NCBI GenBank assembly: GCA_016748015.1
Contig: JAAOMT010000436.1
Span: 548,703-612,702 of the forward strand
DNA: 64,000 nt
Source of the DNA: Geosiphon pyriformis uo1
Taxonomy: Eukaryota > Fungi > Glomeromycota
Direction of reading: 5' to 3'
Below are positions 1 to 61,760 of this stretch, piece after piece. How positions within the stretch are numbered: the stretch's first letter is position 1; every line of letters starts with the position of its first letter. A program made the position numbers and the translations under genes. The notes beneath the pieces were generated by a model. It searched no databases and had not been told where the DNA came from. It saw only the letters and a list, made by a program, of their open reading frames with translations.

Positions 1-362
1 ATTATAAAACTAAAGAAAAACTATTTAAAAAGAATTAATTTGTATTAGATTTGTTTTTTATTTATTAAAACTATATTTTTTTATACATATTTTTTAATTC
101 TACAAAATTGTTTTTAATTGTTTATTATTGTTAACTATTATTTATTATTTTAGTTATTGTTTTGTTTTTTATATTATAATTAGTTATTATATATTATTAT
201 TAATTATTTTGTACTATTTTATATTATTATGTATTATTATGTATTATCTTAAGTTATTTTGTATTATTTTGTATTATCTTATATTATCACGTTTTTTTAT
301 ATTATTATATATTAATTACATTTTTTTAATAGGTTTAAATTGGTTTTTTTATTCAGATAATA
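1..362 (-). repeat. 3' LTR of Gypsy C (partial)
   Basis: Aligns with ~10480-10752 and ~23460-23808. Ends ...cagataata (decayed TAACA) and is followed by ttattttttcttttt, the decayed form of Gypsy A's ttatctcctcttttt PPT. Confidence 0.75.
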
Positions 363-369
363 TTATTTT

Positions 370-1050
370 TTCTTTTTAAAATTAAGCTTTTACAAAATTA
401 TATGTATCTTTAAAAATTGTTCTTTTAGTATAGTATTTAATTATCATGTTAAATATTGTTTTTTGTAGTTCTTTAAACCGAGAATTTGTTATTTATTTTA
501 TATTTTTAATTGTAATAGTTTTCAATAAATTGTTTAATAATATGATTGAATAATATTTAAATATTGAATATAATTAATATATTATTTTGTAATATAGTAT
601 TAAGTTGTTTCTTTTAACAAATTTTTTTATTTATTTAAAAGCTTTTTTATTGAATATTTATTTGTTGTTATTTATGTATAGTGTTTATAAATCCAGTTTT
701 TTGCCAATTTTAAAAAACTAATATATTAATAAAAATTTTTTTTTATATCATGAAAATTTTAGAAATTTATTTTTTAGTATTTAGTTTTATAACTAAGTTG
801 TATAAAACTTTTTTGATTTTTTTTATTGTTTAAAACCACATAGCTTTTTTTTTAATTATTTATAAAGATAAAAATATTCAGTTTTAGTTAAATTTTTGTT
901 TATTTTTTCTTTGCTTGTATTTTTGTATTATATATCTTTTCTATTAATTGTAATTTTTATTGATATTGTAAATTATTAAATTGCTAAAAATAGTTTTTAT
1001 AAAAGTTTTAAGATTTTGTCTAAGAAGTTTATGCTAAAAATGTTTTAAGC
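370..1050 (-). pseudogene. Decayed ORF3 (env-position ORF) of Gypsy C
   Basis: Minus frame ~540-725 reads IY*FFKIGKKLDL*TLYINNNK*IFNKK...LYYKIIY*LYSIFKYYSII, colinear with Gypsy A ORF3. Ends are approximate. Confidence 0.6.
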
Positions 1051-3280
1051 TTTTTTTCTCATTTTTTTTAGTATTTATATATCTAATTTGTGTAATTCAA
1101 ATTTTTATACATGGACTAAATTTAATTATAATGATTAGTTTCAAATTTTGTGTAATATTTTTAGGTCTGATTAATAAAATTTGTGTTTTTAATTAAAGTA
1201 TAAATAATAACAATTTTTGTGTTGTATAATAAAGTTTTAAACAATTTTTATATACAGTTTTCTTTAAAATTCTGTTTTCTAATTGTAGTTTATAAGCTTT
1301 ATTGCTAAAAACTTTGTATATGTAAAATAGTCTATCCTATTTTAGGTCAAATTTTTTATTCTATTGTTTTTTAGCTTTAGTACAATATAATAATACTTGG
1401 TTTTTAATCTTGAATTCAATTAGTTAGTCCAGTAAACAATTATTATGTCTTTTTTTTGTTATTTTTAAGAGTTATTAAAATTGTTAGCTGTTATTTTATA
1501 ATTGTTTTCTAGTGTTTCTATAAACTGGTATGTTTTTTGGTATAAAATAACTTTAAAGTTCTCTTTAATAATTGTTTTTGTTAGAAAAAAAGATATTTTT
1601 AGTTTAATAAGCAGAATGATTTTTTTTATAGACTAATTTAAAAAATGTAAATTAGATAGTATTTTGCTTTAATGTTTGGTATATAAATAATAATAATAAA
1701 GATATAAATAAGTTCTATTCTTATATCTTATTTTTGCTAAAGCTTTGTATAATGTTTGATTAAATTATTCTATTAATTTGTTTGTTTAAAAATAATATAA
1801 AAATAACAAAAATTATTTTATTCTATATTATTTACTTAGTTTTATCAAAGTACTATTAATAAAATAAGTTTTTTGATTGAATAATAATTTTTTTAAACAT
1901 TTATGTTAACAAATTAGATCTTGATATATAAACTTAATTATTGTATTGGTATTTACAACTTGGATGACTTAGGCTTTTGGCCATTTTGTAAGATAGTTTA
2001 CAGCTATTACAATATATTAATTTTTTTTTAAAATAATTAAAAGAAGTTTAACTAAATCAATCTTAATTTTATTAAATAAATTTTCAATTAGAATAAATTA
2101 AAATGGTTTTGTTATTCTGGCTTTTTTTTTGATAAAAGTTATAATTAAGAATATATTTAAAAATATTTTTATATATTGTTGGCCAATAGTTTAAATTAAT
2201 TGGTTTTTTAAAGTAACATCTTTATTAAAGTATTTTATAATTAAATTAAAATATATATTAAACAGAATGGTTTATTTTAGTATCTTTTATAATTTATTAG
2301 AGTGTTATATGGTTTTAATATTCTTATTATTATAATTATTTATTGTAAATAAGATAGTTTCAAGCTTGTTTTTGTATAATACTTTGTTTTTGTTGAAATA
2401 ATTTTTTTTTAAACTAAAATGTTAACAAATATTAGTATAATTATTAATAGATAGTTGTATTTATTAATACAAGATTAAATTTGGTTTATTTTTAATAATC
2501 TGTTAATATTAGTGTTTTTAGCTCTTTTTTTATAATGTATTTTATATAAAAATTGCTGCAAATAAATACTTTATCTTATATATATTTTTTTAAATTATAA
2601 CTTGTTAAGCAACTAAATTAATTTTTTATAATCTATATATAAATTAAATAATTGACAAAAATAATGTTTTTAATTTTGTACAGCCCAGTAAATAATAAAA
2701 CACTCTAAGTTTATAATATTGTATATTTTTTTGGCTGTATTAATACTTTTACTAATATAAATAGCAAAATATTCTTTATTATCTAGTTTAATTTAAAATA
2801 AAACTGCTCTTAAAGCATTTTTTAATACATTAATAATTACAATGAATTGTTTATTAAAATCTGAATATATTAAAATTAAAGCTTTAACAAGTTAATATTT
2901 GAGATAATTAAAAATTTTTTGCTGTTTAGTTTTTTATTTATATAGTATATGTTTTAAAAATAAATAATAAAAGAGTTTGGTAATATCTAAAAAACTTTTA
3001 ATAAACAACAATAATATCTGACAAGTCCTAAAAATTCTTAAAATTCATAATATTAAGAGTAAACTTGATAAAATAATATCATAATTTTTAGTATTTATAA
3101 CTTAATAATAAAAACTAATTAAACATTAATATAATAGTTTAAAAACTTCTTTCTCTCTTTCGTCCAAAATTCCCAAAAAAAAGTCAAAAGTTTTTTCGAA
3201 AGAAGTTTTTTACCATTCAGTACAATAAATCAAAACTGTTCTTCGATTACGAGACCACTGTTGGCTCTGTTATTGCTGTT

Positions 3281-9742: not shown

Positions 9743-12700
9743 TGTTGTCCTGATTAGTCTGAGTGGCTGGTCACGTGTAGAAAGAGCATGATTCATGCCT
9801 AGTTTAGATCACTTGTATGATGTATTGTACTAAGTAGTGTTTGGACCTCACTTGTTAAATAAATAAAAAAAATAATAGTTTTTTTGGTTAAGTTGATTAT
9901 TAATCTTTAAAAAAAATTTTGTTTGAAATTATATTTGTTGAGTTTTTTTGTTATAAGATACAAAGTTCTGGTTTCTTTAATTATGTTGTTCATATTGTAT
10001 TTTCTTTTAAAATAATAAGCACAGTTATTAAAATCTGGTATTGTTTTTTTATTCTTCTGGTAAATTAACAAAATAAAATTAATATCTAAATTTAAAAGAA
10101 GCTTCTCTTTTTTACCAAACTATTATGAAATTTATTTTTAAACAGTTGATTTCTAATGTTATTATTTTACAAAAAAAAATAAAAAAAAATAGAAAGAATA
10201 AAAAAAAATTAATATTATTAATTGCTATAATTAAGAGCAATTAGTCCAAGTTATTAAAGTTTTAAGCTGTTTATGCTAATAGTATCTAAACTAAAACAAA
10301 GATAAAAGAGACAATTGATTTAATTTTAACACTTAGAATATAAGAATTATGTATATATGAGTTAAATAATAAACTTTTATTAAAATAATTTACTAATATA
10401 TATAAAATAAGATTGATTTAAATTATGGTTAAAATATAAGAAAAAAAATAATTTTTGTCTTTTTCTTTTTTGTTGTTGTTTTTATACATATTTTTTAATT
10501 TTACAAGATTGTTTTTAATCACTTGTTATTATTAGTTATTATCTACTATTTTTATTATTGCTTTGTTTTTTACATTATAACTAGTTATTTTATGTTATAA
10601 TTAGTTATTTTGTGTTAATTTATATTATTGTGTATTATTTTGTATTATTCTAAATTATTTTGTATTGTTTTGTATTATCATGTTTTTTATATTATTATGT
10701 ATTAATCACGTTTTTTTAATGATTTTGAATTGGTTTTTTTACTTAGATAACAATAAAAATTGGTTAAAACTAAAAAATTTTTAACTTTCTGGACTTTGTT
10801 TGGATTTAATTTTACTTTATTTTTTTTGATAATGTGTTTCAAAAATTTAAGCTCAGTTTTTTCAAAGAAATATTTGTTAGAATTAAGTTTGAATTCTGCA
10901 TTTTGGAGATAATTAAAAACTTGTCAAAGATAAAAAAAATGATTATTGAACATTTCTAAAAATACATTGGTGTTATTTAAATATACAATAATTAATTTTT
11001 ATAGGATTTTTTTATATACAACATTTATTAAGCATTGGAAAGTAACTGGAATATTATAGAATTCAAAAAACATTACATTGAATTCAAAATTTTTATTTTG
11101 TATTGTAAATATGGTTTTTTTTTGTCATTTAGATTTATTTTGATTTGTTAATATTTACTGGCTAAATCCAATAATAAAACCATTTTTTATTTTTCGAATT
11201 GTTTAGAATTTTTTAGATTAGAGAAATTAAATAGTTATTTCTTTAAAAAATACTTTAAGTTTTCAATAATCAATACAAAAATAAATTTTTTCATTCTTTT
11301 TTATAACCAAAATAACAAGTAAAAATCATAAATTTAATAATTTTTTTATTAGTTATTATTTAACATTTGTTGTACTTTTTGTTTAATTGGATTGTTTTTA
11401 TTTAGAATAATTTAATATGCTTATTGTTTAATAAATTTAACATTTTTAATATTAATTTTATGCTTTATAATATAAATGTATTCGAATTTATTTTTATTAA
11501 TAAAAACATCAACATATTAATTCAAAAAAACTTTGAATTGTATTTGTTAAAAAGTACTTAAATTTTTTAAATTAAGTTTATTGATTTTTTTTGAAATAAA
11601 TAAGTAACTTTTTTTTAATATGTTCTATACTTAAAAAATAATGTTACAAAATAAGAATAGTTATACAAAGTTAAGAATAAATTAAGGCTTTTTAGAATCT
11701 TGAATGTTTAAGATAATAAAACTAATAAAGACTTTTTAAAAAATTTCAATAATATTTTTCATAAAACTGTGGATGAAAATTTTAAAGTGTTTATAGATTT
11801 TGGTAAATATATAAAAATTGACAATATTTGCTATATAACAAATTTTTGAAGCAATTTTAAATAATAAAGCTTGGTCTTAAATATTTTATTCAACTTTTAT
11901 TATGAATTTTTAATATAATGAAATTAAAATTATAGTGTTAGTATAAATAAATTCTACTTTGTTGCTGGCTTTTTTTATGTAATTGACTTGTATAATTTTT
12001 TTTATTAGATCTAAATACTTGAATTTTTTAAACAGTAAGATCTAATTCTTTTTACATGGTTATTGGAATTAATTGAAAGATTTTTATAAAAGATAAAAAG
12101 ATGGCTTAAACAATTTTTTCTTGGAATTTGATTATATAAGGCTTATTAAAATTGTTTTAGGGCATTACAATAATATTCTCAGTATATTTGGCATTAATTA
12201 TTCCTTTTTTAGTATTTATCTCTTATTTATGAGGCTAAATTAAAATGTAATCTGGATTATTGTATTAATAAAAATTTCTAAAGCTAATTTAAAATCTATT
12301 TTTATAAAAAAATAGAGTGTTATAATTACAAAAGCTTATTTAAAATATCTTAAATCAAATCTAATATTATTTACATGTGTTTTTTTAAGACATATTTTTT
12401 CATTGTTGTTATTATATCATTTTAGTTTTAATTTTTTAAAAAGATTAAAATAGATAAAATACTATTCTATTTTGGTAGTCATATTTAACTTTTAAAATAT
12501 TATGTTTTTTGTATTTAATGTATACTTTTTTTTAAGTTTTCTGAATTTAGAAATAGAATAAAGTGTTTATAGAGGTGAATTAAACAAAAAATTATATTTA
12601 TTATAGTACTAAAAATAGTAAAAAATTAAATAATAATCATATAATTTAATATCTTTGCTTTTGTTTTTTTTAAATAGAAATAAGCTTTTAGTAATATTCT

Positions 12701-14659
12701 TGAAATATTTTAAAATTATTAATAAACAAGTTATTTGTTTTTTTAACTATTATTAAAACATTTTTAATAACATATATTTTTTTAATAATGGTTTTTTTTT
12801 GCTATTTTTCAGATTTTATTTTTATTATAAAAATATAAATCTAATTGATTAATTATTTAACTATAAACAGCAGTAAAAAAAAGTTCTTTACAAGTCTAAT
12901 TATTAATAAAAATAGTATATTAACAAAATTTATTGTATGTTTTTTTCTACTAAAGTTATTATTCTATAGTTTTTTATTATAGGCAAAACAGATATATTAT
13001 TCTATTTGCTTTGTTATTTTGAGTGTTTAAATTATTTTAGTATACATAAATAATAATAATATCTAATAACAGTTGGCTATACTTTATTATCTTCTATATA
13101 TGTACTTATTAAAGATAATTTCTTTTTACAATTTACACAAACCAATTTTGAAAAATAATAAAATTAATTTTTTTAATTTAATAGTACATAAACAAAAATT
13201 AATATTTGTAACTTTTCTTCTGTTTTTTTTTGTCTTTTTTTTTTCAAGTGGGTAATAATTGTAATTCTGTCCCGAAATTATTGGCACAAAAAATTTAATA
13301 AGTTTTTAAGATAGGCTGTGCTACAAATTTTTTAAATTTAATTAAAAACTGTTCAATAATAGCTGTTTTGAAATATTTACAGATAATAAAAACTTAAATA
13401 TGTTAACTATTAAACAAAATTTGAAGTTTTTGTATATTTTAATCAAAAATGGCATAAGTTTTGGTCAATTAATTATTGTCAACTAAAACTTGATATTAAG
13501 TTGCTTCTATTATAAAATTTTTGTCGAAATTATAATTTCATTTATTTTAAAAAAAAAATTATTAATTTTTTCTATTAAAGTTTTAGTATTTCTATTAGTT
13601 ATAATAATTTCAGTTATAGCTGTCTAATTAATTTGGTAATCTAATTAATCTATAAGCTATTTTGTGATTATGCTGTCAACTAATCTGTTATTAAATATTA
13701 ATTTAATATTTATTTGCTTTATAGTAATATTAATGTATATTGTTCTAATTAGTTTGTTCTAATTAATAGTAGCTTTACTAAAAAAATCTAAGATATTTAA
13801 GCTGTTAATTTTGAATAAAAATATGGCTACAAATATTTTATTTTTAGTAATTGTAATTAAAAAAATCATATTAAAGGTGATTTAGTTGTTAATAAAAAAA
13901 ATTGATAATTTTAACTGTAGTTTTTTTTTAAAAATACAGCATTTTCAAAATTCTAAGTTTTGAAAAAACCAAGATATGAAACTTGGTTTGAATATTTTGT
14001 TGATAGTACTTGAAATAATAAATTGTTATAATTTATATTTTAGAGTGGCATTGCTATAAGTTAGATATTGTTTTTATTATTGCTTTACTATCTTTAATTA
14101 TAATTAATAGCTCAAAATTTTAAGTTACTATATTGTAAAGCTTGATATTATAGTTGTGTTTATAATATTATTTATAGATATTAATAATAATTCTGTGATA
14201 ATTAAATTAAGTATTTTAATTGTTAATATTAAGACAAAAAATATTGAAATCCTATGGATTATAAATATCTTATTATTGTTAATATTAGTTTTTACAATTC
14301 TAATTTGATATTTTTTTGCAATAATTTTTTACAATATAACTTAGTTTTTGATAATAATAACAATTATAAAGATCTTGTTTTTAAAGTTGTTATTGCTATT
14401 GGTGTTATTGCTATTTTAGTACTTTATAATATTGTTATTTTTTCAGTATTGTAAAGGTTAGTATGCTTTTGAATTTTTTACAAAGAATCTTTTAATTTTT
14501 TAAGTTAGCTTTTTATTTTTATTTTATTTTTTTTTATTTATTTATTAATGAGTACAGTCCAACCAAAGTCTAAAATAAGTTACAAAAAAAAGTAGCCAAT
14601 TAAACATGGTTCACGCATTTGCTACATGTGACTGGCCACTCGAGCCAATCAAGGCAACA

Positions 14660-22800: not shown

Positions 22801-23808
22801 TATTATAAATAAATTAATAAAATATAGTTATAATGTTTAGAACTTGTAATTTAATAATAAGAGCAGTATAAAAATCAAATAAATTAACTTTAATTATGTT
22901 GTAAGTTATTAATTTTTGAAGATTTTTCTGTTTTTAAAGTTTTATTTGTTAGGTTTTTTTTGTTATAAAATACAGAAATATTGTTTTTTTAATTGCATAA
23001 TTATTGTTGTGTTTTTTTCTAAAGTTAGTAAATATAATCATTAGAATTTAGTATTGTTTTTTTACTTTTTTAATAAGCTAACAAGATAAAATTAATATTT
23101 AAACTTAAAAAAAGTTTTTTTTTTTACCAAATTATTATAAAATCTATTTTTAGATAATTAATTTTCAATATTACTGTTTTATAAGAAAAAAATAAAAAAA
23201 ATAAAAAAAATAAAAAAAAAATAAATAATAAAAAAAAATAAAAAAAAATTAGTATTCTATTAATTACTATATTTAAAAGCAATTGGTCTAGTTGTTTAAA
23301 GTTCTAAAAACATTTATGCTAATAATATCTGATCTAAAATAAAAACAAAAGCAATAATTAATTTAATTTTAAAAATCAGAATATTAAAATTATGTACTTT
23401 ATAAATTTGAATAATAATATTTTTATTTGATTAATATAGAATATAAAAAAACAAAAAATTATAAAGCTAAAAAAAAATATTTAAAAGAAATTAATTTTTG
23501 TTGTGTTTGTTTTTTATTTGCTAAAACTATTTCTTTTTATACATATTTTCTACTTTTATAAAATTGTATTTAATTGCTTATTATTACTAGCTATTATTTA
23601 TTGTTTTAATTATTGCTTTGTTTTTTACATTATATTTAATTATTTTATATTATTATTAGTTATTTTGTATTATTTTACATTATTGTATATTATTTTATAT
23701 TATTTTGTATTATTTTGTATTATTTTGTATTATCATGTTTTTTTATATTATTATATATTAATTATATTTTTTTAATAGTTTTAGATTGGTTTTTTTATTC
23801 AAATAACA
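22801..23808 (-). repeat. 5' LTR of Gypsy C (~1.0 kb)
   Basis: Termini tatta...taaca; adjacent PBS; similar to the two other copies; contains a 10-bp periodic TATTAT array. Confidence 0.75.
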
Positions 23809-26800: not shown

Positions 26801-27451
26801 TATAACAACAAAAAATTTAACAGATTATAGACAGTAATGTTTATTAACAGTATATATAAAAAAGTATAATAATAGTTTTTTAAGTTTTATATTTATTTAT
26901 TAGTATTGGCTTTAATTATATGTATAAAGTTTTTGTTTAGCAAAATTAATTATTAAAAAACTACCAGATTTATGTCTTTAATATTCTCAAACTTAATTAA
27001 CACTTTTTGCCAAAAATTAATCAACTGTATTTTAATTGTTTTGATTTTACTAAATCTAAATAATATTAATTCTAATACCAATTTAAAAAGATTGATTAAA
27101 ATTTTTTTAATAATAATTTTTTGATTTAATTTAATATTAATTCTCTTTAAATTAATATTAACCAAAATTTTTTTATTAATAACCAGTTTTTTAATTTTTT
27201 TAAACTCGATTTAAAAATAAATATGAATTAATATTATAAAATTTTGGAAAAAAAACGTTTTTTTAAAACTATTAAATTAATAAAAATTTTTTTAATATAT
27301 CTAAGTTTATTATTTAATGTTTTTTTTTTAATTGCTTTATAAGTGAGGTCCAAACACTACCTAGTGCTATACATCAAAGAAATGATCTAAACTAGGTGTG
27401 AATCATCCACTTTCTACATGTGACCAGCCACTTGGACTAATCAGAACAACA

Positions 27452-32085: not shown

Positions 32086-32869
32086 TGTTACAGATAATTA
32101 TTTGAGATCTTAAATCAAATAACAAATCTGTAACTTGATGCTCAATATCTTGACAATACTGGTTTTACTAGTATGTAAGTTGTATCTGAAGGTTTTTAGA
32201 GTTGAGTTCTTTGTATAATAGACAGAGATTTAATGATGATGTAGTTGGTTGGTAAGTTGTGTTCCCAATTTCTGTTTTCAGCTTGGTGGCCAGTTTATTC
32301 TGGCATTCATGCCCTTTTGGTAAACTATCTATTAATATATATATAATTTTACTCTTATTTCTGGGTTTTTTACCAGGCTATCTGTGATGTCAATTACTCA
32401 GTATTTTAATCCTTAATCAGTTAGTATACAACAATAAAATTAAAGGAAGAAAGAAATAAAAAAAAATAAAGAAATGAGCCAAGACAATGTGCAAGTTAGA
32501 ATCTTGTCAATAGCTGTAATCAAGAACTATTGTTCCAGCATGATTAAGTATCAATTACTATCAATATAAAGTGTTGATAATAGAGAGTGAATTTGAATAG
32601 TAAATAATTTATTTATTTAATATTTGTTGATGGAAGATTTCTAACTAAAGGATTCTGCTTTTTTCTACTTTTAACATTATCACTATATATACATAATTGA
32701 TGTTCTATGAGATTGCTCACATTCCTGAGTGATGTGTTATAATTTCTTGAGCAATGTGCCATGATTTCTGACATTGCTTCATATTGCTGAACAATGTGCT
32801 CATGTGCTAAATACTATTCTCTTATTGGTCTACTATTTTTTTATATCTGTTTTTTTTTTATAAGTAACA
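32086..32869 (-). repeat. Gypsy A 3' LTR (784 bp)
   Basis: Direct repeat of 41278-42161. Confidence 0.93.
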
Positions 32870-32871
32870 TT

Positions 32872-32884
32872 ATCTCCTCTTTTT
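32872..32884 (-). other. Gypsy A polypurine tract
   Basis: Minus strand AAAAAGAGGAGAT next to the 3' LTR. Confidence 0.8.
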
Positions 32885-33518
32885 AATATTGAGCTCCATC
32901 AAAATCTTTGTTTTGAATTAATTTTAATACTTCTTTTTCAAGTATTGTTTGTTCAACTCTGTTTTTCATGTCTTTTACTTGTGTATTGTTCATTTTTCCC
33001 CATTAGTTAATGGTTATAGTTTCTATGTCAAAGTGTAACAGTATTTCTGAATAATTCTGAAATATGTTGTGTAGTCAATAAATTGTTCTCACATATAGTG
33101 TTGAGTTTGTCTTTTTTCCAATAAATTCTTCAATTTGCTGTATTATGTTTTGGTTAAATACTTTCTTGGATTTGTTGATATACAACTTTTGAATATTCAA
33201 CTTTCGACCTAATTGGTAGTAACAGTATAATATTGGAAATTGTTCTGTTTATTGCTTCCAATTTTCTTTTGTAAGTTTTTCTGTTGGTATCATATTAGAT
33301 ATTTTCCCAAAAGTGTTTTTTACTTTTTTTATTATATTATCTGACCAGTTTTTATTATTCTTTGGTAACTGCTGATATGGTGTATTCTTTGTCTTTCTTT
33401 TGATATTTTGATAGCAAATTGTTTGATTGTTAATGATAATTGTTATGTCTAAAGGTTGTTAACTTAAGGCCTGGAATAATTGTTGAGCTATAACATGAAT
33501 ATAATCTGGTATTTTCAT
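32883..33518 (-). pseudogene. Gypsy A ORF3 (env position), unknown function; absent from the ORF track because of internal stops
   Basis: The start MKIPDYIHVIAQQLFQAL and the core FPILYCYYQLGRKLNIQKL...TNSTLYVRTIY*LHNIF...WGKMNN...FDGAQY* are in the same frame; homologous to ORF 44153-44665. Confidence 0.75.
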
Positions 33519-33636
33519 TTTTTTTTGGTTGTCTTTGTCATGTATACTGTGTCTTTATATATTCTTTTATTGTTTAATATTACATGTTTGGTCCAATGAT
33601 TATTATTGGTTTCAGATCTCATAGAATCTTATCTGG

Positions 33637-34960
33637 TTAAACTAGTATTTGTTGTACTCCCAATTGTGGAATGTTATTGGTAGATAATGATGCTATTTGG
33701 TGATATGGTTTTAGTCAATCACTATGTGCTGCTTTAGCTAAGATTTTGTTGTTCCATCTTAGTTTATAAGCTCCATTTCCAAGAATTTTTTCTATGTAAA
33801 ATAGTCCATCCCATTTGGAGTCAAATTTTCTATTCCATTGTTTTTCCACTTTGGTACAATGTAAAAGTACTTTGTCTCCAATCTTGAATTCAACTGGTTT
33901 ATCTAGTAATTGATTATCATGTCATTCTTTTTGCTTCTTTTGAGACTTTTGGATGTTATCAACTGCTTTTTGCTATTTATTTTCTAATGTTTCCATTAAG
34001 TCATATGTTTTTTTTAGCAATATTTCCTGAAAATTGTCTTCAGTTATTGGTTCTATTGGATAAGTGGTAACTTCCATCTCAATTGGTAATGTTGCTGTTT
34101 TACCATATACTAATTCAAATGGTGTTGCTTATGTAGTGTTTTGCTTCATTGTCTGATAAGCAAATAATACTAATGGTATGAACAAATTCCATTTGTCCTG
34201 ATTTTCTTGACTGATCTTGGCGATTGCTTCACACAATGTTCTATTAAATTTCTCAACTAACTTATTTGTTTGTGAATGATATGGTGATAATAATAGTCTT
34301 TTAATTCCAAATCTTTGACTTAATTCTGCTAATATTCTGTTCACAAAGTGAGTTCCTTAATCTGATAATAGTTCTTTTGGACAACCATGTCAACAAATCA
34401 AATCTTGATAAACAAATTTGGCAATGGATTCTGCATCTGTTCTTTGAATGGCTTTTGCTTCTGGCCATTTAGTGAGATAATCTATGGCTACTGTGATATA
34501 TCTGTTGTCTCTGCTGATAATTGTTAATGGTCTGACTAAATCAATTCCAATGTGATCAAATAGTTGTCCCACTTTGATTGGTCTTAATGGTTCACTTGGT
34601 CTTGTTCCATCTCTTCTCTGACAAGTATCACAATTCTGAACATATTGGATGATGTCTGGATACATTGATGGCCAATAGTATTTTTTTCTGGTTTTTTCTA
34701 TGGTTGTTTCTTTATGGAAATGTCCTGCTGTTGGATTTGAGTACATGTTGAATAGTATTGTTTCTTTTTTTGATTCTGTAATTACTCTGGTTGGTTGGTC
34801 TGGATTTCTTTTGTTTTTCTAATAAAGTATATTTTGATGATTGATGAAATATTTTGATTGCTGTTTTATGTTGTTTTGTTTTTTTTGAGATAATTTCTCT
34901 TTGAATGATTGAGTATTTATATAATGCTGAAGTTGTTGGTATTTTTGTGTGTTCATCTTT
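33637..34960 (-). pseudogene. Gypsy A integrase
   Basis: HHCC-type region (TAGHF...CDTCQ), IGIDLV, DYLTKWPEA, SPYHSQTNKLVEKFNRTL, GPY/F-like WDGLFY. No chromodomain seen. Confidence 0.9.
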
Positions 34961-35029
34961 TGTTATATTTTTGGGTTGAAATGTTATTAGATTTGTCTTA
35001 TTCATGACAATCCATTAGCATTTCCATTG

Positions 35030-36360
35030 TCTTTTCTCTTTTATAATGTACTGTATAATTAAATGGTAAAAGTTCTATTTTCTATCTGGCATGACAATTG
35101 TCTGCAAATTCTTGTTTCTGAATTGAAGTCAATCCTTTGTGATCAGTATGCACTTCAAACTTTTGATTCAAGTATTCTTTCCACTTGATAACAACCCAAT
35201 AGATAGCTAAGTGTTCTAGTGCTGGAGTTTCATAGTTCTTCTCAGCTGGACTTAAACTTCTACTGGCATAAGCTACTGGATGCTCTCTTTCATCGGGTCT
35301 TTTCTGTGATAGTACTGTTTCCAATGCTTGACCTGATGCATCAGTAGTAATGATAAATGATTTGTTGTGATCTGGATACATCAATACTGGAGCTTAGATA
35401 AGCTTTTTTCTCAATGTATCGAATGCTTCTTGTTGAGCTTCAGTCCATTCATACTTTACATTCTTGGTTTGTAAATAGTGAAGTGGCTGAGCTAGTTTAG
35501 AAAAATCCTTGATGAAGTGGTAATAGTAGCCTGCAAATCCCAAAAATACTCTTAGTTTTGGCAAGTTGGCTGGTACTGGAAAGTTCTTAACTACTTTGAT
35601 CTTGTCTGGATCTGTTTTGATTCCGTCTTTGCTTACCACATGTCCCAAAAACTTGAGTTCAGTTTTTTCAAAGAAACATTTGGTTGCATTTAATTTCAAT
35701 TCAGCTCTTCTTAACCTTTTGAATACTTGTTGGAGATAATACAGATGATCATTAAATGTTTTTGAGAACACATTGGTGTCATCCAAGTATATGACTACTG
35801 ATTTCCATAGTAGTCCAGTATAAACAATTTCCATAAGCCATTGGAATGTGGCTGGAGCATTCATCAAGCCAAATGGCATGACTTCAAACTCAAAATTTTC
35901 TTCTCTTGTGGTGAATGCTGTTTTTTTTTTGTTGGCTGGATCTATGGCTACTTGCCAGTATTCACTATCTAGATCTAATGTTGAAAACCATTTATTTCCT
36001 CCAAAAGCATAGAATAGTTCTTGGATCTTGGGGATTGGATAACTATCTCCTTTGGTTACTCCATTCAGTTTCTGGTAATCTACACAAAAGCGGATTTTTC
36101 TATTTTTCTTATGAACTAATACTACTGGTGACAACTATGAACTCATTAATGGCTGAATTAGCCCGTTGTCAAGCATCCAGTTGATTTCTTGATAAATGAT
36201 CTTATGGCTAGCTGGTGGTACTTTGTATGCTCTTTGTTTAATTGGCATTGCATCACCAGTCTTGATCTAATGCTGGATGATGTTGGTTCAGCCAAATTCA
36301 TTTTCACTAGCAAAAATGTTATTGAAATTGTTGAGTAACATCTTGAGTTGCATCTGTTGA
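35030..36360 (-). pseudogene. Gypsy A reverse transcriptase and RNase H
   Basis: RFCVDY, FSTLDL, VMPFGLMNAPATF, VIYLDD, FLGH; RNase H TTDAS, AYASR, LEHLAI, HTDH. Confidence 0.93.
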
Positions 36361-36799
36361 AGTGAATTTAGATTCCCCATGTTCATTTGTTTTAATTGTT
36401 CTGGTTAGAGCAGATAACATTTACTTCTTCCATAGATGGTTTGTGATGTAATGTCCACATATCTGCAAAGCTGTGGAAAATTTGGAATGTGGTTTGGTAG
36501 TTGATCCTCAACTTTGGTGGTTAAATATCCAATGATGGTTCCCTTTGGTATTTCAATGACTTTTCCAGTTGTGTTATAGATAGGAATTTTGATGTTTTTG
36601 GGGCTTTTGGCTGATATGTAAAGATTGGTGAGTCCAATCTCCTCTGATTTACAAATGATGGCTTCTGCTTCAAATAATTGAGCTTGATTCTTTACTTTTT
36701 TTTTTATAGCTAACATATACTGGTCATATAGTGGAATAGAAATTGATTGATGAGTTGAGATAATTTCTCTTTTGTCAACAATTTTTTCCTTTGCCATAT

Positions 36800-37230
36800 T
36801 AATTGGTATGTCTATTCTACCCATTAATCCAAATCCCTGTATCTTTCTTGCAGTTATACTTAGTTCTTTCCTTTTTCTCACTGAAACTAACTGAGCTATT
36901 TTCACCAGAGATAAGAATATTGTCTGTACTATCTTTTCATTTGGTTCTATAATATAGGCCTTTTCTGAATCATTTTGTAGCATGATAATGATATTTTCTA
37001 TATATCTCGCATCAATTATTCCTCCTTTGATGTTGATTCCTTTTTTCATTAAACTACTTCTAGATGCTAGTTAAACTATAGTTGTTGTTGGAATTTCCAG
37101 AGCTATTTTGAGATCAATACATGTGTATGAATTTGGTTCCAATTTGATGACTTCTTTTCCCAGATATCTCAAATCAAACTCTGTATTGGTATCATGTGTG
37201 CATTCTGGTATAATACTTTCATTATTATTA
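36800..37230 (-). pseudogene. dut: Gypsy A dUTPase domain
   Basis: Trimeric dUTPase motifs in order: (AG)FDL, ASRSSL, GGIIDARY, IVQTIF, R..QGFG..G. Confidence 0.85.
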
Positions 37231-37469
37231 CTATACCATTTGAGTTCTTGCTCCTTAGAGAGATCAGAAAGTGCAATGTATATTTTGGAGTTTGAATCAG
37301 AGTCTAAATTGTTGATATTTTTGTTGCCATATTGTGCAGAGCTAAAACTAATGTTTTTGTTGTTATTGTTATCAGAGTTTGAATCGGGATTGAAAACTGA
37401 TTCTAATTCTAATACACAGCTGTTGATTAATTCTTCTTCTGGGATCGTGTAGATCATGTGTGATAGTAG

Positions 37470-38120
37470 ATTGTAAATTAAATCACACTTATTACAATTT
37501 TAAAAGTCACAGGGAATTAAGCAATATTGACATAACCGAGTATTCAACTGCACTAACCACTGCTCTTGTTTTTCCCTGGTAGGTGCTAGCTCTTGATAAT
37601 GTTCGTAGAATTGTTCTGGATCTAAGAGATTTATGACTGGTTTTGGGTCTCAGTCAAGTTCTATAGGTTCAGGTGGGTTATTTTTAATTGTTTTTATTTC
37701 TTTTGGAGTCACTCCTTCGATTTTGGTAAGTGCCATTTGCCAAATTTTGTCATTGTCATGTGGGCACCTGTTCAAACATTTGATGGCTTGTCTTCAGGCA
37801 GTGTTTATGGGCATTTTTTTTCTCACCCAGTTGTTTATAAAAATTGTGTATTGACACAATTTGTTGTATGTTTTTCTTCGCCCAAGAATGTTATTCCACA
37901 TTCCTTTGTTCAGAAAAGTTTTCCACAAGCCAAGCATGGTTCATTGTTCTATTTCCCAATCCGTTTTGGCCTTTCAAAGCATTCAATAATGCATGGGTGA
38001 CAGTAGAATTTCATTGTCAAAGTGTACTCCTTATCGTTGCCACAACAAGCACCTATTGATGACAATTTCTTGTCACAATTGATGCATACCAGTTTTGGGC
38101 AGCAATAAGTGGATTGGTGG
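37470..38120 (-). pseudogene. Gypsy A Cys-rich domain between protease and dUTPase
   Basis: CINC, CHPC, CLAC, CQY, CQYC, CNKC in the pol frame; homologous to 48810-49440. Confidence 0.7.
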
Positions 38121-38429
38121 GGTGTAGTGTAGGAATTATAAGTGGGTTTGCTGTCAGTTGTTGGTTCTTCTTCCTTCCTCTTTCCTTTTCCCTTTTTGTC
38201 TTCTTTCTATTTCCAATTTATTTGTTTTTCCTAGTCATTGTCAGTTTTCCAGGCTTGGTTGGCTTTCCAGGTAAGTTCTTTGCTTTGCTTTCCTTTGCTG
38301 TTGTCATCCCACAAAGGTACTGACAGCAGCTTGTTGTGTTCTGTGTTGGTCCAGAAAACTTGGTAAGCTTCCCAGGTAGGTTTCTTCTCTTCTTTCTCGA
38401 ATTCAATAAGTGGTGCTGTCAAGTTAATG

Positions 38430-38830
38430 GATTTAAAATGGCTGTATGTGGCTGGTATGCATGTGTGTCAACTGTTTTGGCTCAGTTGGAGCTTCTGCAT
38501 TATCCAGTCCAGTATGGCATTGGTTTTAGATAACCAATTATTCCTTACTAATGCCTAATATTGGGTTGCTTCCATCACTAGGACTTTGATGAAAATGATG
38601 ATGCCATTGACTTTAAAAAAGAAGTTATCAATCTCACCAATAGGAGTTTTGGTTGCTCCATTGGCAGTTATGATCCTGGTGCTGGCAGTGCAATCAACTC
38701 AGCAACTTAATTGGTTCATGAGTTGTTTTGTAATGATGCTGTCAGCTGATCCACTATTTAAGATCAGTTTAATGGAGTGGCCATCAACTTTGACATTAGT
38801 ATACATGGCGGTGATTGGTTTGGTGTTAAG
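38430..38830 (-). pseudogene. Gypsy A aspartic protease
   Basis: KLILNSGSADSII (decayed DSG), followed by a ALVGNNWL-type motif. Confidence 0.85.
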
Positions 38831-38999
38831 AACAGTTCCACTGAATAATAGAACTGGTGTGGTTTCCTTGAGTTTGAATGGAAAGATGGTGTTCAGTGTT
38901 TTGTTCTCAGTAATAGTAGCTAGGAGAATATTGCTGGTAAGTGTTGATTGTTGTTTGGTTTCCAAATTATTGGGTTGGGCATCTTCTGGGGTAACCAGA

Positions 39000-41214
39000 A
39001 TACTTAAATAGTTCTGGGCATTTGAATTCTGGGCATATCCGGTGTCCAAATTCTATTGTTAAGATCCTGCTGGTTGTGTGGAAGAACTGAGGATCAGTTG
39101 GTGGACTATTATCAACAATTTCCAGCTTTGTTGAGTCAATTTCGGTCTTTGAGTTCTATTTTAAGGTAAGTTCTGGGGTGGTGTTGGAATTTGTTGGGGC
39201 TGATAAATTACCTGCAGCTGATAAATGGATTGTGTTTATAGCTAATAAATTGTCGGTGTTGTCAGTTGATAAATTGGCACTTGATATACTGGTGGTTGAT
39301 AAATTGGCTGCTGTGTCATAGATATGTAATTCTGATGGTGTGGCTTTGAGTTTGGTAGATTATTTGGAATTCAAAACTGGTGATCAAGATTTTGATATTG
39401 ATTTCTCAATCATTGGTTATTTAAACAATGGCAGCAATTAATTTGTAGATGTCCTTGTTTACCACAATAGTGACAAACACCCATTTCCTGTTGTCACTGT
39501 TGATTGGTTGATGATGATAGACATGACTGATTCTGGAAACAATTTATGTTTCCAGAATTATTGCATCATTGTGCTGGTTGATAAATTACACAATTGTCAG
39601 CTAAGTATCCCTCTAATTTCTGATTGATGGAATCACTAAATTGTTTCAATTTGGAATCCAATTCAGATAATCTATTCATTACTAGATTAATGGCTTAACA
39701 TGGTTGGCTTCTAATTCAGCAGCTTCAAAATCTCTGGCATTTGTGATGACTGCTTGCAGATTGACAAAATACATTGGACATATGCATTGCAGGATGCTAC
39801 TGTGTAATCTGTAAATAAACTGATTTAGGATCTGGGCTACTGTGAAGTAATTGGCATCAATGGTTTGGATTTGGTGCAGATTCCTGTAGAAGTGTCCTAA
39901 GTAAATAGTGACTGCTTCATTTTCTCTTTGTTTGATGATAGTGAAAGTGTTTATTAGCCTATTAATACTGTTATTATTGCTGAAATATCTTAAGAACTCA
40001 ATTTTGAATGCATTGAAATCTTGGAGTTTGTTGACTAGGCTTTAATATTATGAATTAGTGGTATTCTGAAGAAAATATAAAATGGCTTGTATTGCTCTGG
40101 TGTTATTCCATCCATTAGCTGCTATGGCTTTTTCTACATTGTTAAGCCATACTTGGGCATTATTCTTTTCGCTGGTGAATTTTTCGAGTTTTGCTATTGG
40201 AGCGTAGGCTATTGGATCCAAGTTTGGTTGTTGAAGTTGTTGTTGCAGCTATAAAAGTGGCTGCTATGGTAGTTGAAGTGGTTGAAGTGGCTGTTGTTGC
40301 TGTTTGTCAATTGGTGGAGCTGAGGTTGGATTGATCACAATTACTGGAGGTAAGTGTTGTTGATTATTAATGTTGGGGTTTTGATCATTCTGATTGTGCT
40401 GTGTTTGAAAATTTGGAGTTTCAATTTCTGGATTTTCTAAATTTAGATTTTTCTGAGTCTAAAAGTTCGGGGTTTCAATTTTCTGATTTTCAGTGATCAG
40501 GTTCTGGTAAGTAAATTCTTGATCTTCAGATTCTTCTTTCTCTTTTTTTTGGTCTTCTTCTGATTTTGTTACTTCTCAGGAACTTGTGGTTCTGAAATCT
40601 GGTTGGAATAGCAGAAATCGGAGCCCTGATGGCATAGACAATCAAAACTTAAATCCTTTGAAATATGCACCATATAGTCTTAGAAGATCTTCTTTCTTTT
40701 GTTTACTCTGAAATGGAAATTGTCCAAAGGTTGATGTCATGTTTAATGTGAACACACCTGTTAATGTAATATTGATGGCACTTCTGGGTGTATAATGGTA
40801 TAATGGATTAGTTGGTGATTTAACTCTTGTTTTCTTCCAAGTAGATGGTTATATCCTTTGAGATGTTATTGTTGGTGTTTGTAATTTTCTTTTGTCTTTG
40901 TTTGCATAGGTAATTGGATATCTTTGTTGAGTGTGAATTTCAATTTCCTTATTGATTTCAGTGAGGATTGCTGTGAAATTATAATTTGTTGGTAAGCTGG
41001 TATTTTGGATTAATTTGTTGTAGAAGTTTCCTTTAGCTGAGTTGGTTTCTACTAGTACTCCTAGTAAATATGAGATTTTCTTGTGAATGTAGAAATTAAA
41101 AGCTGATTCTGCTGATAAGTAATTGTCAGTTAATCTTAAATGTTGACAGTAATGTTGAAATAAAGATTTCGCAAATTCTAAATGGTTTGTCCCTGTTTCT
41201 TTGGATTCTGTCAT
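39000..41214 (-). pseudogene. Gypsy A gag
   Basis: Starts MTESKETG just after the PBS; capsid-like AYAPIAKLEKFT...WLNNVEKAIAANGW; CCHC knuckle CHYCGKQGHLQINC ~39435-39480. Confidence 0.8.
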
Positions 41215-41261
41215 TGTTTAAATGGGTGTTATTAGTGCTGATTCTCTGTAGGATTATATTT

Positions 41262-41275
41262 CACAGGGAGCACCA
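41262..41275 (-). other. Gypsy A tRNA primer-binding site (tRNA identity not assigned)
   Basis: TGGTGCTCCCTGTG, 2 nt after the 5' LTR. Confidence 0.85.
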
Positions 41276-41277
41276 AA

Positions 41278-42161
41278 TGTTACAAATGATTATTTGGGGT
41301 CTCAAATCAAATAACAAATCCATAACTTGATGCTCAATATCTTGACAATGCTGGTTTCACTGGTATTTGGATTGTATCTGAAGGTTTTTAGAGTTAAGTC
41401 CTTTGTATAATAAACAGAGATTTAATGATGATGTAGTTGGTTGGTGAGTTGTGTTCCCAATTTCTGTTTTCAGCTTGGTGGCCAGTTTATTTTGGCATTT
41501 GTGCCCTTCTGGTAAGCTATCTGTTAATATATATATAATTTTACCCTTATTTCTGGGTCTTTTATCAGACTATTCATGATGTCAATTACTCAGCGCTTTA
41601 ATCTTTAATTAGTTAGTATACAACAATAAAATCAAAAGAAGAAAGAAATAAAAGAAAATAAAGAAATGAGCCAAGGTGATATGCAAGTTAGTATCTCATT
41701 AATAGCTGTGATCAAAAGTTATTGTTCTAGCATGGTTAAGTATTAATTACTATTAACATAAAGTGTTAATAGTAAAGAGTAGATTTGGATGGTAAATGAT
41801 TTATTTATTTAATATTTGTTGATGGAAGATTTCTAACTAAAAGATTCTGTCTTTTTCTACTTTTAACATTACCACTATATATACATAATTGATGTTCTAT
41901 GAAATTGCTCACATTCCCGAGTGATATGTTATGATTTCTTAAGCAATGCTCACATTGCTGAACAATGTGCCCTAATTTTCTAATATTGCTCCATATTGCT
42001 GAGCAATGTGCTGTGTTTTCTGACATTGCTCCACATTGTTGAGCAATGTGCCATGATTTCTGATATTGCTCCATATTGCTAAGGAATATGCTCATGTGCT
42101 AAATACTATTTTCTTATTGGTCTACTATTTTTTTATATCTGTTTTCTTTTTATGAGTAACA
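41278..42161 (-). repeat. Gypsy A 5' LTR (884 bp) with ~40-bp tandem units
   Basis: Direct repeat of 32086-32869, with extra units at ~41940-42090. Confidence 0.93.
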
Positions 42162-43216: not shown

Positions 43217-44184
43217 TGTTACCAGAGGTTTTTGGGTCTTTTTTCTTCAATATTGTTGATACCTGTTTACTGTGAATTCACGTTTTCTGGATGTGGTTGA
43301 ACCTCCAGTAACTGAATTTATCTTCAAATTATCTCCTATAATTTGAACTGCTGGGCTTATAAGTGGAATGGCCAATTTTGTGCCAGTTACTTTGTATAGT
43401 TACATTGTAGTAAATGTCAACTCTTTCTCAGGAATTGCTTATCTGAAAGTTCACTAAAATGTGTAGTTACTTTGCTGTGAAAGTCAACTCTTCTACAGAA
43501 ATCTTGTCTGTATGCTACTCTAATAATTGTAATAAGAAAATAAAAGAAAAATAAAATAAATGTAAAAGAAAAAGTAAAACTGATGATTTATAGAAGTCGT
43601 TTTGGATCCAGGCCTGGAAGTGCTTTAACAGTCTTACTGAAATTGGTAGCTAATCAATTTCAAACTGTTAGTAAGGATTGATTAATTTCAAGAGAAATAA
43701 TTTAAAAATTTGATTTTTCGAATTATTTGATATTTATTTTGTTTTTGTATGTAAAGGATGATTCTAATTATTAAATCTGAAGTAAGATACATTTCCTTGA
43801 AGAGAGAAGCTCTTCTTTTATACAACTTGTCATAACACTATTCTATGAACTTAAACTTTGCTATTTTCTATAATTTTGCTGAACTAATGATACATTTCAG
43901 CAAACTACAAGTTATTTCTGCAAACTATTAGATATTTCGGCAAATTTCTTACAAATTTTGGTGAATTTTTTAAATGTTACATAATTTGGGGTATTGCATG
44001 ATTGATCATCACAATTAGGTTACATTTGTGTTATGTACAAATTGAGTTATTAATTAAATGATAATTTCGGATATTTTGCTAATGTAATAAGTGATAATTT
44101 GAAATGATAATATATGCTAATTAATGATAAGATTTATAAGAGTAATTTCATGCTAAACAATATCTTTAATTTCGTCTGGTAATA
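43217..44184 (-). repeat. Gypsy B 3' LTR
   Basis: Direct repeat of 51088-52041; termini TGTTACCAGA...TCTGGTAATA form an inverted repeat. Confidence 0.93.
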
Positions 44185-44871
44185 TAACCTCCTCCTCAAG
44201 ACTGAGCTCTGTCGAAATCCAAGTACTGTCTGTAATTTCCAGATAGTAATCCAAAATTATTGAAGAAATTTGGTCTAAAAATTGTTGAAATTTCAGTTCT
44301 GTGAGCTTTCCAATGTATTGAATCTTCAAAGGCTGTAAAATTGGGTTTTGTAGAACGTTTTCACAGGTGTGGAATAGGTTATAAAGTCTAAGGGCAGCTC
44401 TTAGTTTATAATGACTGTTTGTAGGTCCAGCTGTTGTCTTGAATTCATTGTGAAATTGTTTCTGAATAGCTTCTTTTGTGAGGTTTGCTGATGTAAGCTC
44501 TAGTTTTTGCTCATAAAGTGTTTTTCCAATATAGAAATATCTATATATTGGGGGGTATTTGTCATTTTCTTCATTAAGACACAGTTGAAGTTTTTGTTGA
44601 ATAGTAGTATTTAGTAGAATACTAATAGGAGTGAGCAATAAATTTTTTCTTAAAGCAAGCTTCAAAAGTTTTGGTAAATAAATTTCAGAATAACTTCTTG
44701 TGTTCTTCCTATAAAAGTGATACTTTCGTGAATTTGGGGCTAGATTTGTAACTATTTCTGTTTGGGTATAATTAATATGTTTTCCAGTAATAGTATGGAT
44801 AATTCGGGTATTGTTTTTAAAGCTAACATTAGTTTTTGGAATAATTGTTGAATGTTTTGAGGAATAGTCAT
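44153..44871 (-). pseudogene. Gypsy B ORF3 (env position); open 170-codon C-terminal part 44153-44665, probable start MTIPQNIQQLFQ at 44871 in another frame
   Basis: Homologous to Gypsy A ORF3; reads through the PPT into the LTR. Confidence 0.75.
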
Positions 44872-51087: not shown

Positions 51088-52041
51088 TGTTATCGGAGGT
51101 TTTTGGTCTCTTTTCTTCAATGTTGTTGATACCTGTTTGCTGTGAATTCACGTTTTTGGGTGTGGTTGAACCTCCAGTAACTGAATTTATTTTCAAATTA
51201 TCTCCTATAATTTGAACTGCTGGAATGGCCAATTTTGTGCCAGTTACTTTGTATAGTTACATTGTAGTAAACATCAACTCTTTCCCAGGAATTGCTTATC
51301 TGAAAGCTCACTAAAATGTGTAGTTACTTTGCTGTGAAAGTCAACTCTTCTACAGAAATCTTGTCTGTATGCTACTCTAATGATTATAATAAGAAAATAA
51401 AAGAAAAATAAAAGAAATGTAAAAGAAAAAGTAAAACTGATAATTTATGGAAGTCATTTCGGATCCAGGCCTGGAAGTGCTTTAACAGTTTTACTGAAAT
51501 TGGTAGCTAATCAATTTCAAACTGTTAGTAAGGATTGGTTAATTTCAAGGGAAATAATTTAAAAATTTGATTTTTCGAATTATTTGATATTTATTTTGTT
51601 TTTGTATATAAAGGATAATTCTAATTATTAAATCTGAAGTAAGATACATTTTCTCGAAGAGAAAAGCTCTTCTTTTATACAACTTGTCGTAACATTATTC
51701 TATAAACTTGAACTTTGCTATTTTCTATAATTTTGTTGAACTAATGATACATTTCAGCAAACTACAAGTTATTTCTGCAAACTATTAAATATTTTGGCAA
51801 ATTTTTTACAAATTTCAGCAAACTTTTTGAATGTTACATAGTTTGGGGTATTGCATAATTGATTATCGCAATTAGGTTACATTTGTGTTATGTACAAATT
51901 AGATTATTAATTAAATGATAATTTCGGATATTTTGCTAATGTAATAAGTAATAATTTGAAATGATAATATATGCTAATTAATAATAATATTTATAAGGAT
52001 AATTTCATGCTAAACAATATCTCTAATTTCGTCTGGTAACA
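51088..52041 (-). repeat. Gypsy B 5' LTR
   Basis: TGTTAT...GGTAACA; repeat of 43217-44184. Confidence 0.92.
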
Positions 52042-61259: not shown

Positions 61260-61760
61260 TGTTACAAGTGATTATTTAGAAGGTTAATACAAATAATAAA
61301 CTTGTAACTTAGTGCTCAATAGCTGGTAATATTGGTGATTTTTAAAGATTTTAGAGTTTAAAGATTTTGGTTGAGTTCTTTGTATAATGGACAAAGATTT
61401 AATTAATGGTTTCTTCTGTGAATTTTTTTTTTAACATAGTGGCCAGTTTATTTTGGCAGTTATGCCCTTTTAATAAGCTATCCTTAAATTTTTACTTTTG
61501 TTCTTAAGTCTTTTATCAGGCTATTTTTAATGTCAAATACTTAGCACTTAATTTTTTTAATCAATTAGTAAACAACAAAGAAATAAAATAAAAAAAAATA
61601 AAAAAAATAAAAAAAGAAAATAAAAAATTAGTATTTCATCAATAGTTATGATTAAGAGTTATTGTTTCAATATAATTAAGTATTAGATTTTATTAATATA
61701 GAGTGTTAATAGAATAAAATGAATTAATATTTTTTAATCAAATAATAATAAAATGAATTT
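61260..61760 (-). repeat. Decayed LTR related to the Gypsy A LTR (right end uncertain)
   Basis: TGTTACAAGTGATTATTT...GTGGCCAGTTTATTTTGGCA...; colinear with 32086-32620. Confidence 0.75.

Follow-up and report, generated by a model that had tools for sequence, protein, structure and literature searches.

Fungal Gypsy elements have been described with an 'add. ORF' of unknown function and with the order PR-dUTPase-RT (PMC2864245), and in the same survey PosPlaTy3-5 has its dUTPase between protease and RT, as do the elements described below (PMC2864245). The elements with an 'add. ORF' resemble our carriers in being fungal Ty3/Gypsy elements with an extra ORF. That survey centres on chromoviruses and in its passages on these elements names no Glomeromycotina element, its supplements may list such ORFs, and we set its elements beside ours by description (PMC2864245). 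In bdelloid LTR elements, the ORFs called ORF3 are in sense orientation, occupy the env position and belong to dUTPase-bearing carriers, all of which also holds for the gene studied here; however, the bdelloid ORF3s as reported encode Env, a GDSL esterase or a DEDDy exonuclease, and ours matches none of these (PMC5408684).

We analyzed a window of 64,000 nucleotides from contig JAAOMT010000436.1 of the fungus Geosiphon pyriformis, in whose genome LTR elements are reported to cover 41.2% (PMC11952901). An earlier reading made from the letters of the window (the sequence-only reading) had noticed an ORF between integrase and 3' LTR in each of three Gypsy elements, A, B and C. We found that this ORF, ORF3, is a conserved, selected and soluble third gene tied to this clade of dUTPase-bearing Gypsy elements. 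All three carriers are dUTPase-bearing Ty3/Gypsy elements on the minus strand, and their Pfam matches follow the order gag, protease, dUTPase, RT, RNase H and integrase; no chromodomain was detected in the window carriers by the Pfam search. A and B are each bounded by two LTRs of the TG...CA type and by 4-bp target-site duplications. The parts of the three elements are as follows.

1..362, minus strand: beginning of the C 3' LTR, which the window edge truncates; contains a 10-bp tandem array
383..1062, minus strand: ORF3 of C, from ATG 1062 in a single frame to about 383, with 19 stops in 230 codons
1097..3100, minus strand: integrase, RNase H and end of RT of C
10756..13866, minus strand: remaining pol of C (RT, dUTPase region, protease)
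22897..23808, minus strand: 5' LTR of C, with a gag piece at 21422-21777
32086..32869, minus strand: 3' LTR of A, TG...CA, with one copy of a 19-bp palindrome near 32780-32798
32883..33518, minus strand: ORF3 of A, from ATG 33518 to stop 32883, 211 codons with 4 premature stops
33580..41277, minus strand: decayed gag-protease-dUTPase-RT-RNase H-integrase of A; a PBS-like TGG adjoins the 5' LTR
41278..42161, minus strand: 5' LTR of A, 89.6% identical to the A 3' LTR; target-site duplication CCGC/CCAC
43217..44184, minus strand: 3' LTR of B, its first G mutated
44153..44871, minus strand: ORF3 of B, from ATG 44871 to stop 44153; family length 239 aa
44993..51087, minus strand: decayed partial gag, protease, dUTPase, RT, RNase H and integrase of B
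51088..52041, minus strand: 5' LTR of B, 94.2% identical to the B 3' LTR; target-site duplication ATGG/ATGG

Element C extends over 1-23808, where two LINEs as well as a solo LTR from the C family interrupt it; its 3' part is parted from the remaining pol by a LINE (3126-9885) and the C-type solo LTR (about 9897-10752). LINE-type elements with an endonuclease, an RT and a C-terminal RNase H domain were found at 3126-9885, 14660-21345, 27260-32085, 53443-60205 and 61922-64000. The insertions of A and B lie about 1 kb apart in one LINE copy (27260-53000), the reading frame of which resumes across each of them. We infer that C is the oldest, followed by the LINEs and then by A and B. Element B appears to have undergone a 5' internal deletion, because no PBS is seen and gag begins at the LTR edge. 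In addition, 61260-61725 holds an LTR-like segment that shares about 69% identity with the 3' portion of the A LTRs; no internal region was recognised beside it, and it probably represents a fourth family in the form of a solo LTR.

ORF3 was found in A, B and C where the sequence-only reading had placed it, on the minus strand and in sense with pol, and the peptides quoted there were recovered. A profile made from six database proteins matched exactly these three sites in the window and none else at E<1. The profile match in C spans 1020-415 (E 9.4e-15), and the C ORF3 is nearer to that of A than to that of B. All three copies are broken: A and C by stops, and B by a 1-nt frameshift near 44794-44803 (near codon 27), downstream of which there are no premature stops. 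The sole stop-free frame of at least 100 aa among the three is that of B, in line with the remark that only the B copy appears in the ORF track. A start of the form M-x-I-P...QQLFQ had also been described as shared; it is present, but in the window B copy the M-T-I-P...QQLFQ start is out of frame with the rest because of the 1-nt frameshift. Among 120 listed members of the B family, 20 start with MTIPQNIQQLSQ and six with ...QQLFQ, and the F of QQLFQ in the window copy is probably a decay change. The gene model P0006, which is identical to the window B frame over 69% of the query, skips the frameshift. At its other end, the B ORF3 runs into the B 3' LTR, within which its final 32 nt fall. The earlier account thus stands as to position and homology, but it overlooked the B frameshift and the overlap of the ORF end with the polypurine tract and the LTR.

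The homology of the A and B ORF3s is seen in their local alignment score of 97, against a shuffle mean of 43, which was reached by 0 of 1000 shuffles; a failure of this alignment, which had been named as a point against the claim, did not occur. The A ORF3 scored 114 against the intact B-family protein P0008 and 192 against the metagenomic protein P0149. At the nucleotide level, blastn (E<1e-8, at least 150 nt) links neither the LTRs of A and B, which had been called dissimilar, nor their ORF3s, whereas the integrases do align. Altogether, ORF3 homology spans five element lineages, namely A, B, C and two further elements, L001 and L002.

Many intact relatives were retrieved. With the window B frame as query, 189 proteins of an intact B family were obtained among 690 candidates; the 120 of these that were listed are all G. 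pyriformis gene models, mostly of 221-239 aa, and the family consists of two subfamilies that are 64% identical. An unfiltered search of 1.84 billion representatives gave 31 matches, including the diverged metagenomic proteins P0146 and P0149; P0148, a Salix repeat protein, was discarded as a repeat artefact. A profile made without the B family gave seven matches, which were three metagenomic proteins and four G. pyriformis models of the A family, one of them full length (P0165, an intact 211-aa member). A mixed profile gave 220 matches, and the 120 listed comprise 118 from G. pyriformis and two metagenomic proteins. No named organism besides G. pyriformis occurs among the matches listed, and repeat-masking annotations would conceal ORF3. 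The metagenomic relatives are 230-234 aa long, and the intact versions overall 211-244 aa. In IMG/VR, no ORF3 relative was found in 60 stretches checked and no integrase relative in 194 stretches; phages gave none.

Many predicted host genes among the G. pyriformis gene models P0003-P0164 are ORF3 copies; integrase C-terminal motifs occur in 10 of 162 screened ORF3 gene models, and P0062 bears Gag. The 120 listed G. pyriformis models named 'hypothetical protein' are transposon ORF3s, some of them fused to integrase, Gag or unrelated sequence. ORF3 copies have been annotated as host genes, and therefore the G. pyriformis gene set is inflated.

The metagenome scan, which covered 31 of 64 parts, confirmed two of 593 stretches. 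In L001, RT, RNase H and integrase are followed after a 317-nt spacer by an intact ORF3 of 230 aa (P0146) and then by a purine tract and the LTR start, so that ORF3 has the same position as in A, B and C; in L002, the order is the pol tail, an extra 128-aa ORF and ORF3. The proposed link to a Gypsy integrase was thus recovered: ORF3 lies downstream of the integrase in four elements (A, B, C and L001), and in L002 a single ORF separates it from the pol tail. The spacers between pol and ORF3 measure 34-317 nt. The L001 and L002 carriers seem to stem from related fungi, because their integrase is about 60% identical to those of A and B. Since a further ORF sits between the pol tail and ORF3, the L002 lineage has two extra genes. 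This further ORF (L002:425-811; 128 aa) matched nothing in Pfam and belongs to a cluster of three with members of 136 and 137 aa, one of which lies on a contig equal in length (19119) to that of P0149. Between residues 14 and 68 it resembles the surroundings of the Gag zinc knuckle in the chimeric P0062 (36% over 55 aa, 0 of 2000 shuffles), with the cysteines absent. That it is an ORF3 paralogue was unsupported (probability 1.4%).

We also examined the predicted ORF3 protein. The top 19-residue hydropathy was 0.44-1.33 in six of six intact proteins, and judged by hydropathy none has a hydrophobic segment, in keeping with the earlier statement that ORF3 has no signal peptide or transmembrane segment and does not look like Env. 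Other features of Env are likewise lacking: the proteins have 211-244 aa and one or two cysteines, no Env or fusion family of Pfam was found in 28 members, and the model is compact and helical. The pI of the three intact metagenomic proteins is 5.2-5.9, which makes them acidic as a whole. In the full AlphaFold model, a small helix plus a beta-hairpin (pLDDT about 60) is joined by a basic, disordered linker to a core predicted with confidence. When the core was modelled alone (about 130 aa, nine sequences), seven helices were predicted with a pLDDT of 89.9 and a pTM of 0.85. The all-helical predicted core and the lack of a hydrophobic segment bear out the description of a small soluble helical protein. 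The most conserved part of this core is formed by a helix, a G/K-x-T-N turn and an arginine-bearing helix, and in nine of nine sequences the residues T, N, R and L located in the turn and the third helix do not vary.

Next, we compared the evolution of ORF3 with that of the integrase. Identity between pairs was 22-36% for ORF3 and 59-62% for the integrase. The dN/dS values, which are rough because dS is saturated, alignments are protein-guided and post-insertion decay inflates dN, were 0.35-0.71 in nine of ten ORF3 pairs between families and therefore not near 1, the level that had been named as adverse to selection; the tenth pair gave 1.35 (40 codons, against the decayed C), and the integrase gave 0.23-0.30. 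The second codon position was the most conserved in nine of ten ORF3 pairs. Where 17, 14 and 18 stops would be expected, we counted 0 in L001, 0 in B past the frameshift and 4 in A, respectively (0 of 2000 shuffles in each case). The substitution comparison in the B family used 73 of 120 proteins, those of 217-245 aa, and showed that 47 fixed differences between the subfamilies are somewhat milder than 1756 private changes (mean BLOSUM62 0.32 versus 0.04), with the C-to-T or G-to-A type predominating among the private changes. The integrases of the A and B copies carry six to seven stops, so that pol is broken as much as ORF3. Because of the dN/dS, codon-position, stop-depletion and substitution patterns, we conclude that ORF3 was retained during element activity and decays together with pol after insertion. 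These patterns agree with the earlier suggestion that ORF3 is kept by selection.

These results also bear on the possibility of a degenerate Env, or of an open frame that has no function and accompanies the polypurine tract. Its env position, the breakage of all three window copies and the overlap of its 3' end with cis signals would be compatible with such an origin. However, ORF3 has no hydrophobic segment and one or two cysteines, and intact versions of 211-244 aa exist in several lineages whose DNA is no longer alignable. The stop depletion, the codon-position pattern and the confident fold also argue against this origin, as does the fact that pol is equally broken in the same copies. It is already largely refuted, and we regard it as scarcely credible.

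No ORF3 match near a curated cut-off was obtained from Pfam, PHROGs or NCBIfam, no PDB sequence matched significantly, and Foldseek gave no match at E<=0.001 in PDB and BFVD. A confident match to an already described Env or accessory family, which had been named as grounds for rejecting the claim, was therefore absent from these collections. Two fold searches share their top match, Spo0J 1vz0. Its helix-turn-helix domain was the best of 48,161 solved chains (Z 5.9, rmsd 4.6, 93 aligned, whole domain), but a best match of Z 7-8 is typical of this tool without a true relative, and Z 5.9 falls below this. Among the best 50, whole-domain matches were also given by ParB 6s6h (Z 4.3, rmsd 5.3, 89 aligned) and KorB 1r71 (Z 4.2, rmsd 4.6, 92 aligned). 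The ParB helix-turn-helix signature PF17762 was absent from the Pfam matches of ORF3, and in a shallow test of the ORF3 profile against three ParB helix-turn-helix domains, the score of 9.6 was reached by 29 of 100 shuffles.

A second lead is DUF1016_N (PF17761), which was picked post hoc from a scan of 24,736 families. In Pfam, it had a best E of 0.05 and matched two of 28 members, and the 12.9 bits of P0008 lie below the cut-off of 32.8; in the language-model search it scored 0.85. Comparison of the ORF3 and DUF1016_N profiles gave a score of 25.1 (P 0.002, probability 14%, 64 columns), which one of 100 shuffles by column and none of 100 shuffles by block reached. DUF1016 proteins have been suggested to bind nucleic acid (PMC3424549). 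The ORF3 core is thus predicted to have a helix-turn-helix-like topology, with the ParB/Spo0J and DUF1016_N leads both below significance. FtsQ, which came up at E 0.0065 in PDB and at E 0.00046 in NCBIfam, where its 19.5 bits fall short of the cut-off (366), was rejected, since it was found with the B family only and the ORF3 model is helical; FtsQ domains are beta-rich.

Another lead from these searches would make ORF3 a structural coat or nucleoprotein-like protein akin to the capsids of filamentous viruses. The first language-model match of P0149 was a closterovirus coat cluster (0.91), and a protein of Pyrobaculum filamentous virus 2 appeared at Z 4.7-5.0. We consider such a role very improbable. 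Only 138 of 256 features are common to P0149 and the closterovirus cluster, and the recognition value is under the threshold of the tool; the match is absent with the B query, there is no Pfam coat match (PF01785), and no named filamentous-virus coat protein is among the best 50 matches of either viral fold search.

ORF3 might instead act via protein contacts, either as an inhibitor of a host silencing protein or as an adaptor for Gag, the virus-like particle or the integrase, in which case it could serve in assembly, nuclear entry, movement between the nuclei of a shared cytoplasm or the choice of target sites. The two modules joined by a flexible linker and the mixed charge of the protein would suit this role, its evolution is fast relative to the integrase, as in host-conflict proteins, and the presence of A and B in one LINE copy permits targeting but does not show it. 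On the other hand, the most conserved residues gather in the turn and the basic helix, and the weak fold and profile leads all point toward nucleic-acid-associated domains. We therefore take a role through protein contacts to be somewhat unlikely.

A, B, C and L001 have in common a cis motif of roughly 27 nt, in which GAGCTC comes first, followed by the purine tract and then by the LTR start.

32870..32896, minus strand: cis motif and purine tract of A, adjoining the 3' LTR; the A ORF3 stop falls inside
44185..44209, minus strand: cis motif and purine tract of B, translated here as the acidic tail ELSLEEE
363-389: cis motif of C
L001:3091-3117: cis motif of L001

In A, including the intact proteins P0165, P0166 and P0168, and in C, another reading frame passes through the cis motif, with the stop within it. 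An acidic C-terminal tail, seen in B and L001, was rejected as a conserved protein motif, since A and C translate the same DNA in another frame. On this comparison, the conserved acidic tail is an artefact of the overlap of the ORF3 end with the cis motif, the polypurine tract and the first LTR bases. The conservation of the upstream half of the motif exceeds the needs of a polypurine tract.

The motif raises the alternative that ORF3 is an RNA-binding regulator, Rev- or CERV-like, which would promote the export or packaging of unspliced genomic RNA by binding it, perhaps at this pre-polypurine-tract motif. Such a role would fit the maintenance of the motif in A, B, C and L001 whatever the reading frame, the arginine-bearing helix is compatible with RNA binding, and CERV provides a precedent in a Ty3/Gypsy element (PMC10309623). 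Nevertheless, plus-strand priming alone can account for the motif, and no RNA-binding fold ranked first in the fold search. We judge RNA regulation to be an unlikely role for ORF3.

We also analyzed the LTRs, in which each family bears U3 repeats of its own. Those in A include the following array.

41947..42097, no strand assigned: tandem array of a 40-bp unit (3.8 copies) within the A 5' LTR, with 19-bp palindromes at 41951, 41992 and 42032

Three palindromes are thus present in the 5' LTR of A, and one is kept in its 3' LTR; we infer that those of the 5' LTR are candidate binding sites. The B 5' LTR has 20-bp repeats at 51751-51824 and the C LTR has a 10-bp array, neither of which consists of A-type palindromes. 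Tandem repeats in U3 are common in LTRs. In L001, the heptamer TTGCCCT, which like the other LTR motifs was chosen by inspection and defined from the very copies counted and is to be read as a lead, occurs in five copies (0.35 expected), all of them non-coding. Two are in the spacer between pol and ORF3 (2258-2285) and three in the LTR (3403-3570), and joint regulation of the LTR and of an internal promoter for ORF3 is possible.

Between paired LTRs, transitions account for 78 of 82 differences in A and 53 of 55 in B. Mutations are most frequent at CpG, where they affect 13 of 14 sites in A and 13 of 28 in B; CpA, CpT and CpC are also mutated (14-33%), and the GC content of element C goes down to 15-17%. 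The CpG mutation of the LTR pairs would fit cytosine methylation. Methylation and small RNAs have been reported at transposons in Rhizophagus irregularis (10.1101/2021.03.30.436303). Considered separately, the decay of the window LTRs is RIP-like or non-CG-methylation-like, which is notable given that the same report describes RIP signatures as undetected in Gigaspora margarita (10.1101/2021.03.30.436303).

With these alternatives set out, we tentatively propose that the ORF3 protein is a trans-acting DNA-binding regulator of the LTR repeats of its own element, which keeps the element transcribed against silencing; we see this as a serious possibility that falls somewhat short of an even chance. 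Of the functions that the sequence-only reading had put forward, nucleic-acid binding draws on the sub-threshold fold and profile leads, and anti-silencing and transactivation would be analogies. According to this proposal, the protein would be translated from a separate message, either spliced or started internally, and would enter the nucleus, where its helix-turn-helix-like core would bind the family-specific U3 repeats of its own element. The 19-bp palindromes of family A would suit an ORF3 dimer. The bound protein would then act in trans, in the manner of VANC, and support transcription against host cytosine methylation, and the fast divergence of ORF3 would follow that of the LTR repeats. 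A bolder possibility is that a ParB/DUF1016-like helix-turn-helix factor, possibly captured from bacteria and co-evolving with operator-like LTR repeat arrays, shields the element from methylation, which we think quite improbable. If true, it would represent a VANC-like anti-silencing system of independent origin in retroelements, and it could help to explain the LTR content of about 41% in the Geosiphon genome.

No account of the ORF3 family was found in the literature searched, a scope that did not include the Geosiphon genome papers. ORF3 is therefore apparently a new protein family, although an extra ORF after pol is already known as a position. Accessory genes of LTR retrotransposons with known function are few, and none characterised in fungi was found in the literature searched. 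The ORF3 family offers a small protein that is predicted to fold well, together with intact natural copies and candidate target sites within the same element. If ORF3 counters silencing, it would offer a way into the control of transposons in Glomeromycotina, as well as an epigenetic tool with sequence specificity.

Finally, the proposed DNA-binding regulator can be set beside known systems. The helix-turn-helix domains of ParB, Spo0J and KorB have a helical topology like that of the entire ORF3 core (Z 4.2-5.9, below significance), and in DUF1016_N, the Y-x-x-I-G helix, the turn and the R-x-Y helix align with ORF3 over 64 columns, again below significance; ORF3 comes without an attached ParB N-terminal domain or PD-(D/E)XK nuclease domain. 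The TRP28 ORFs of plant Retand elements likewise occupy the interval between pol and the 3' LTR, are proposed to encode a DNA-binding regulator and have tandem repeats nearby (PMC11963269). As described there, however, TRP28 is antisense in an interval of 3-6.5 kb, whereas ORF3 is sense, fills 0.7-1.3 kb and has no Pfam match (PMC11963269). CERV of the C. elegans element Cer1 is, like ORF3, a non-Env accessory protein of a Ty3/Gypsy element, and its reported role is regulatory (PMC10309623). It is made from a spliced message and exports genomic RNA, and we liken it to ORF3 by description (PMC10309623). As a functional model, we suggest VANC of the Arabidopsis VANDAL elements, which is reported as a fast-evolving element protein that has family-specific, often tandem targets and opposes methylation (PMC5735166, PMC6446971). 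VANC belongs to a plant DNA transposon, and we liken it to ORF3 by analogy (PMC5735166).
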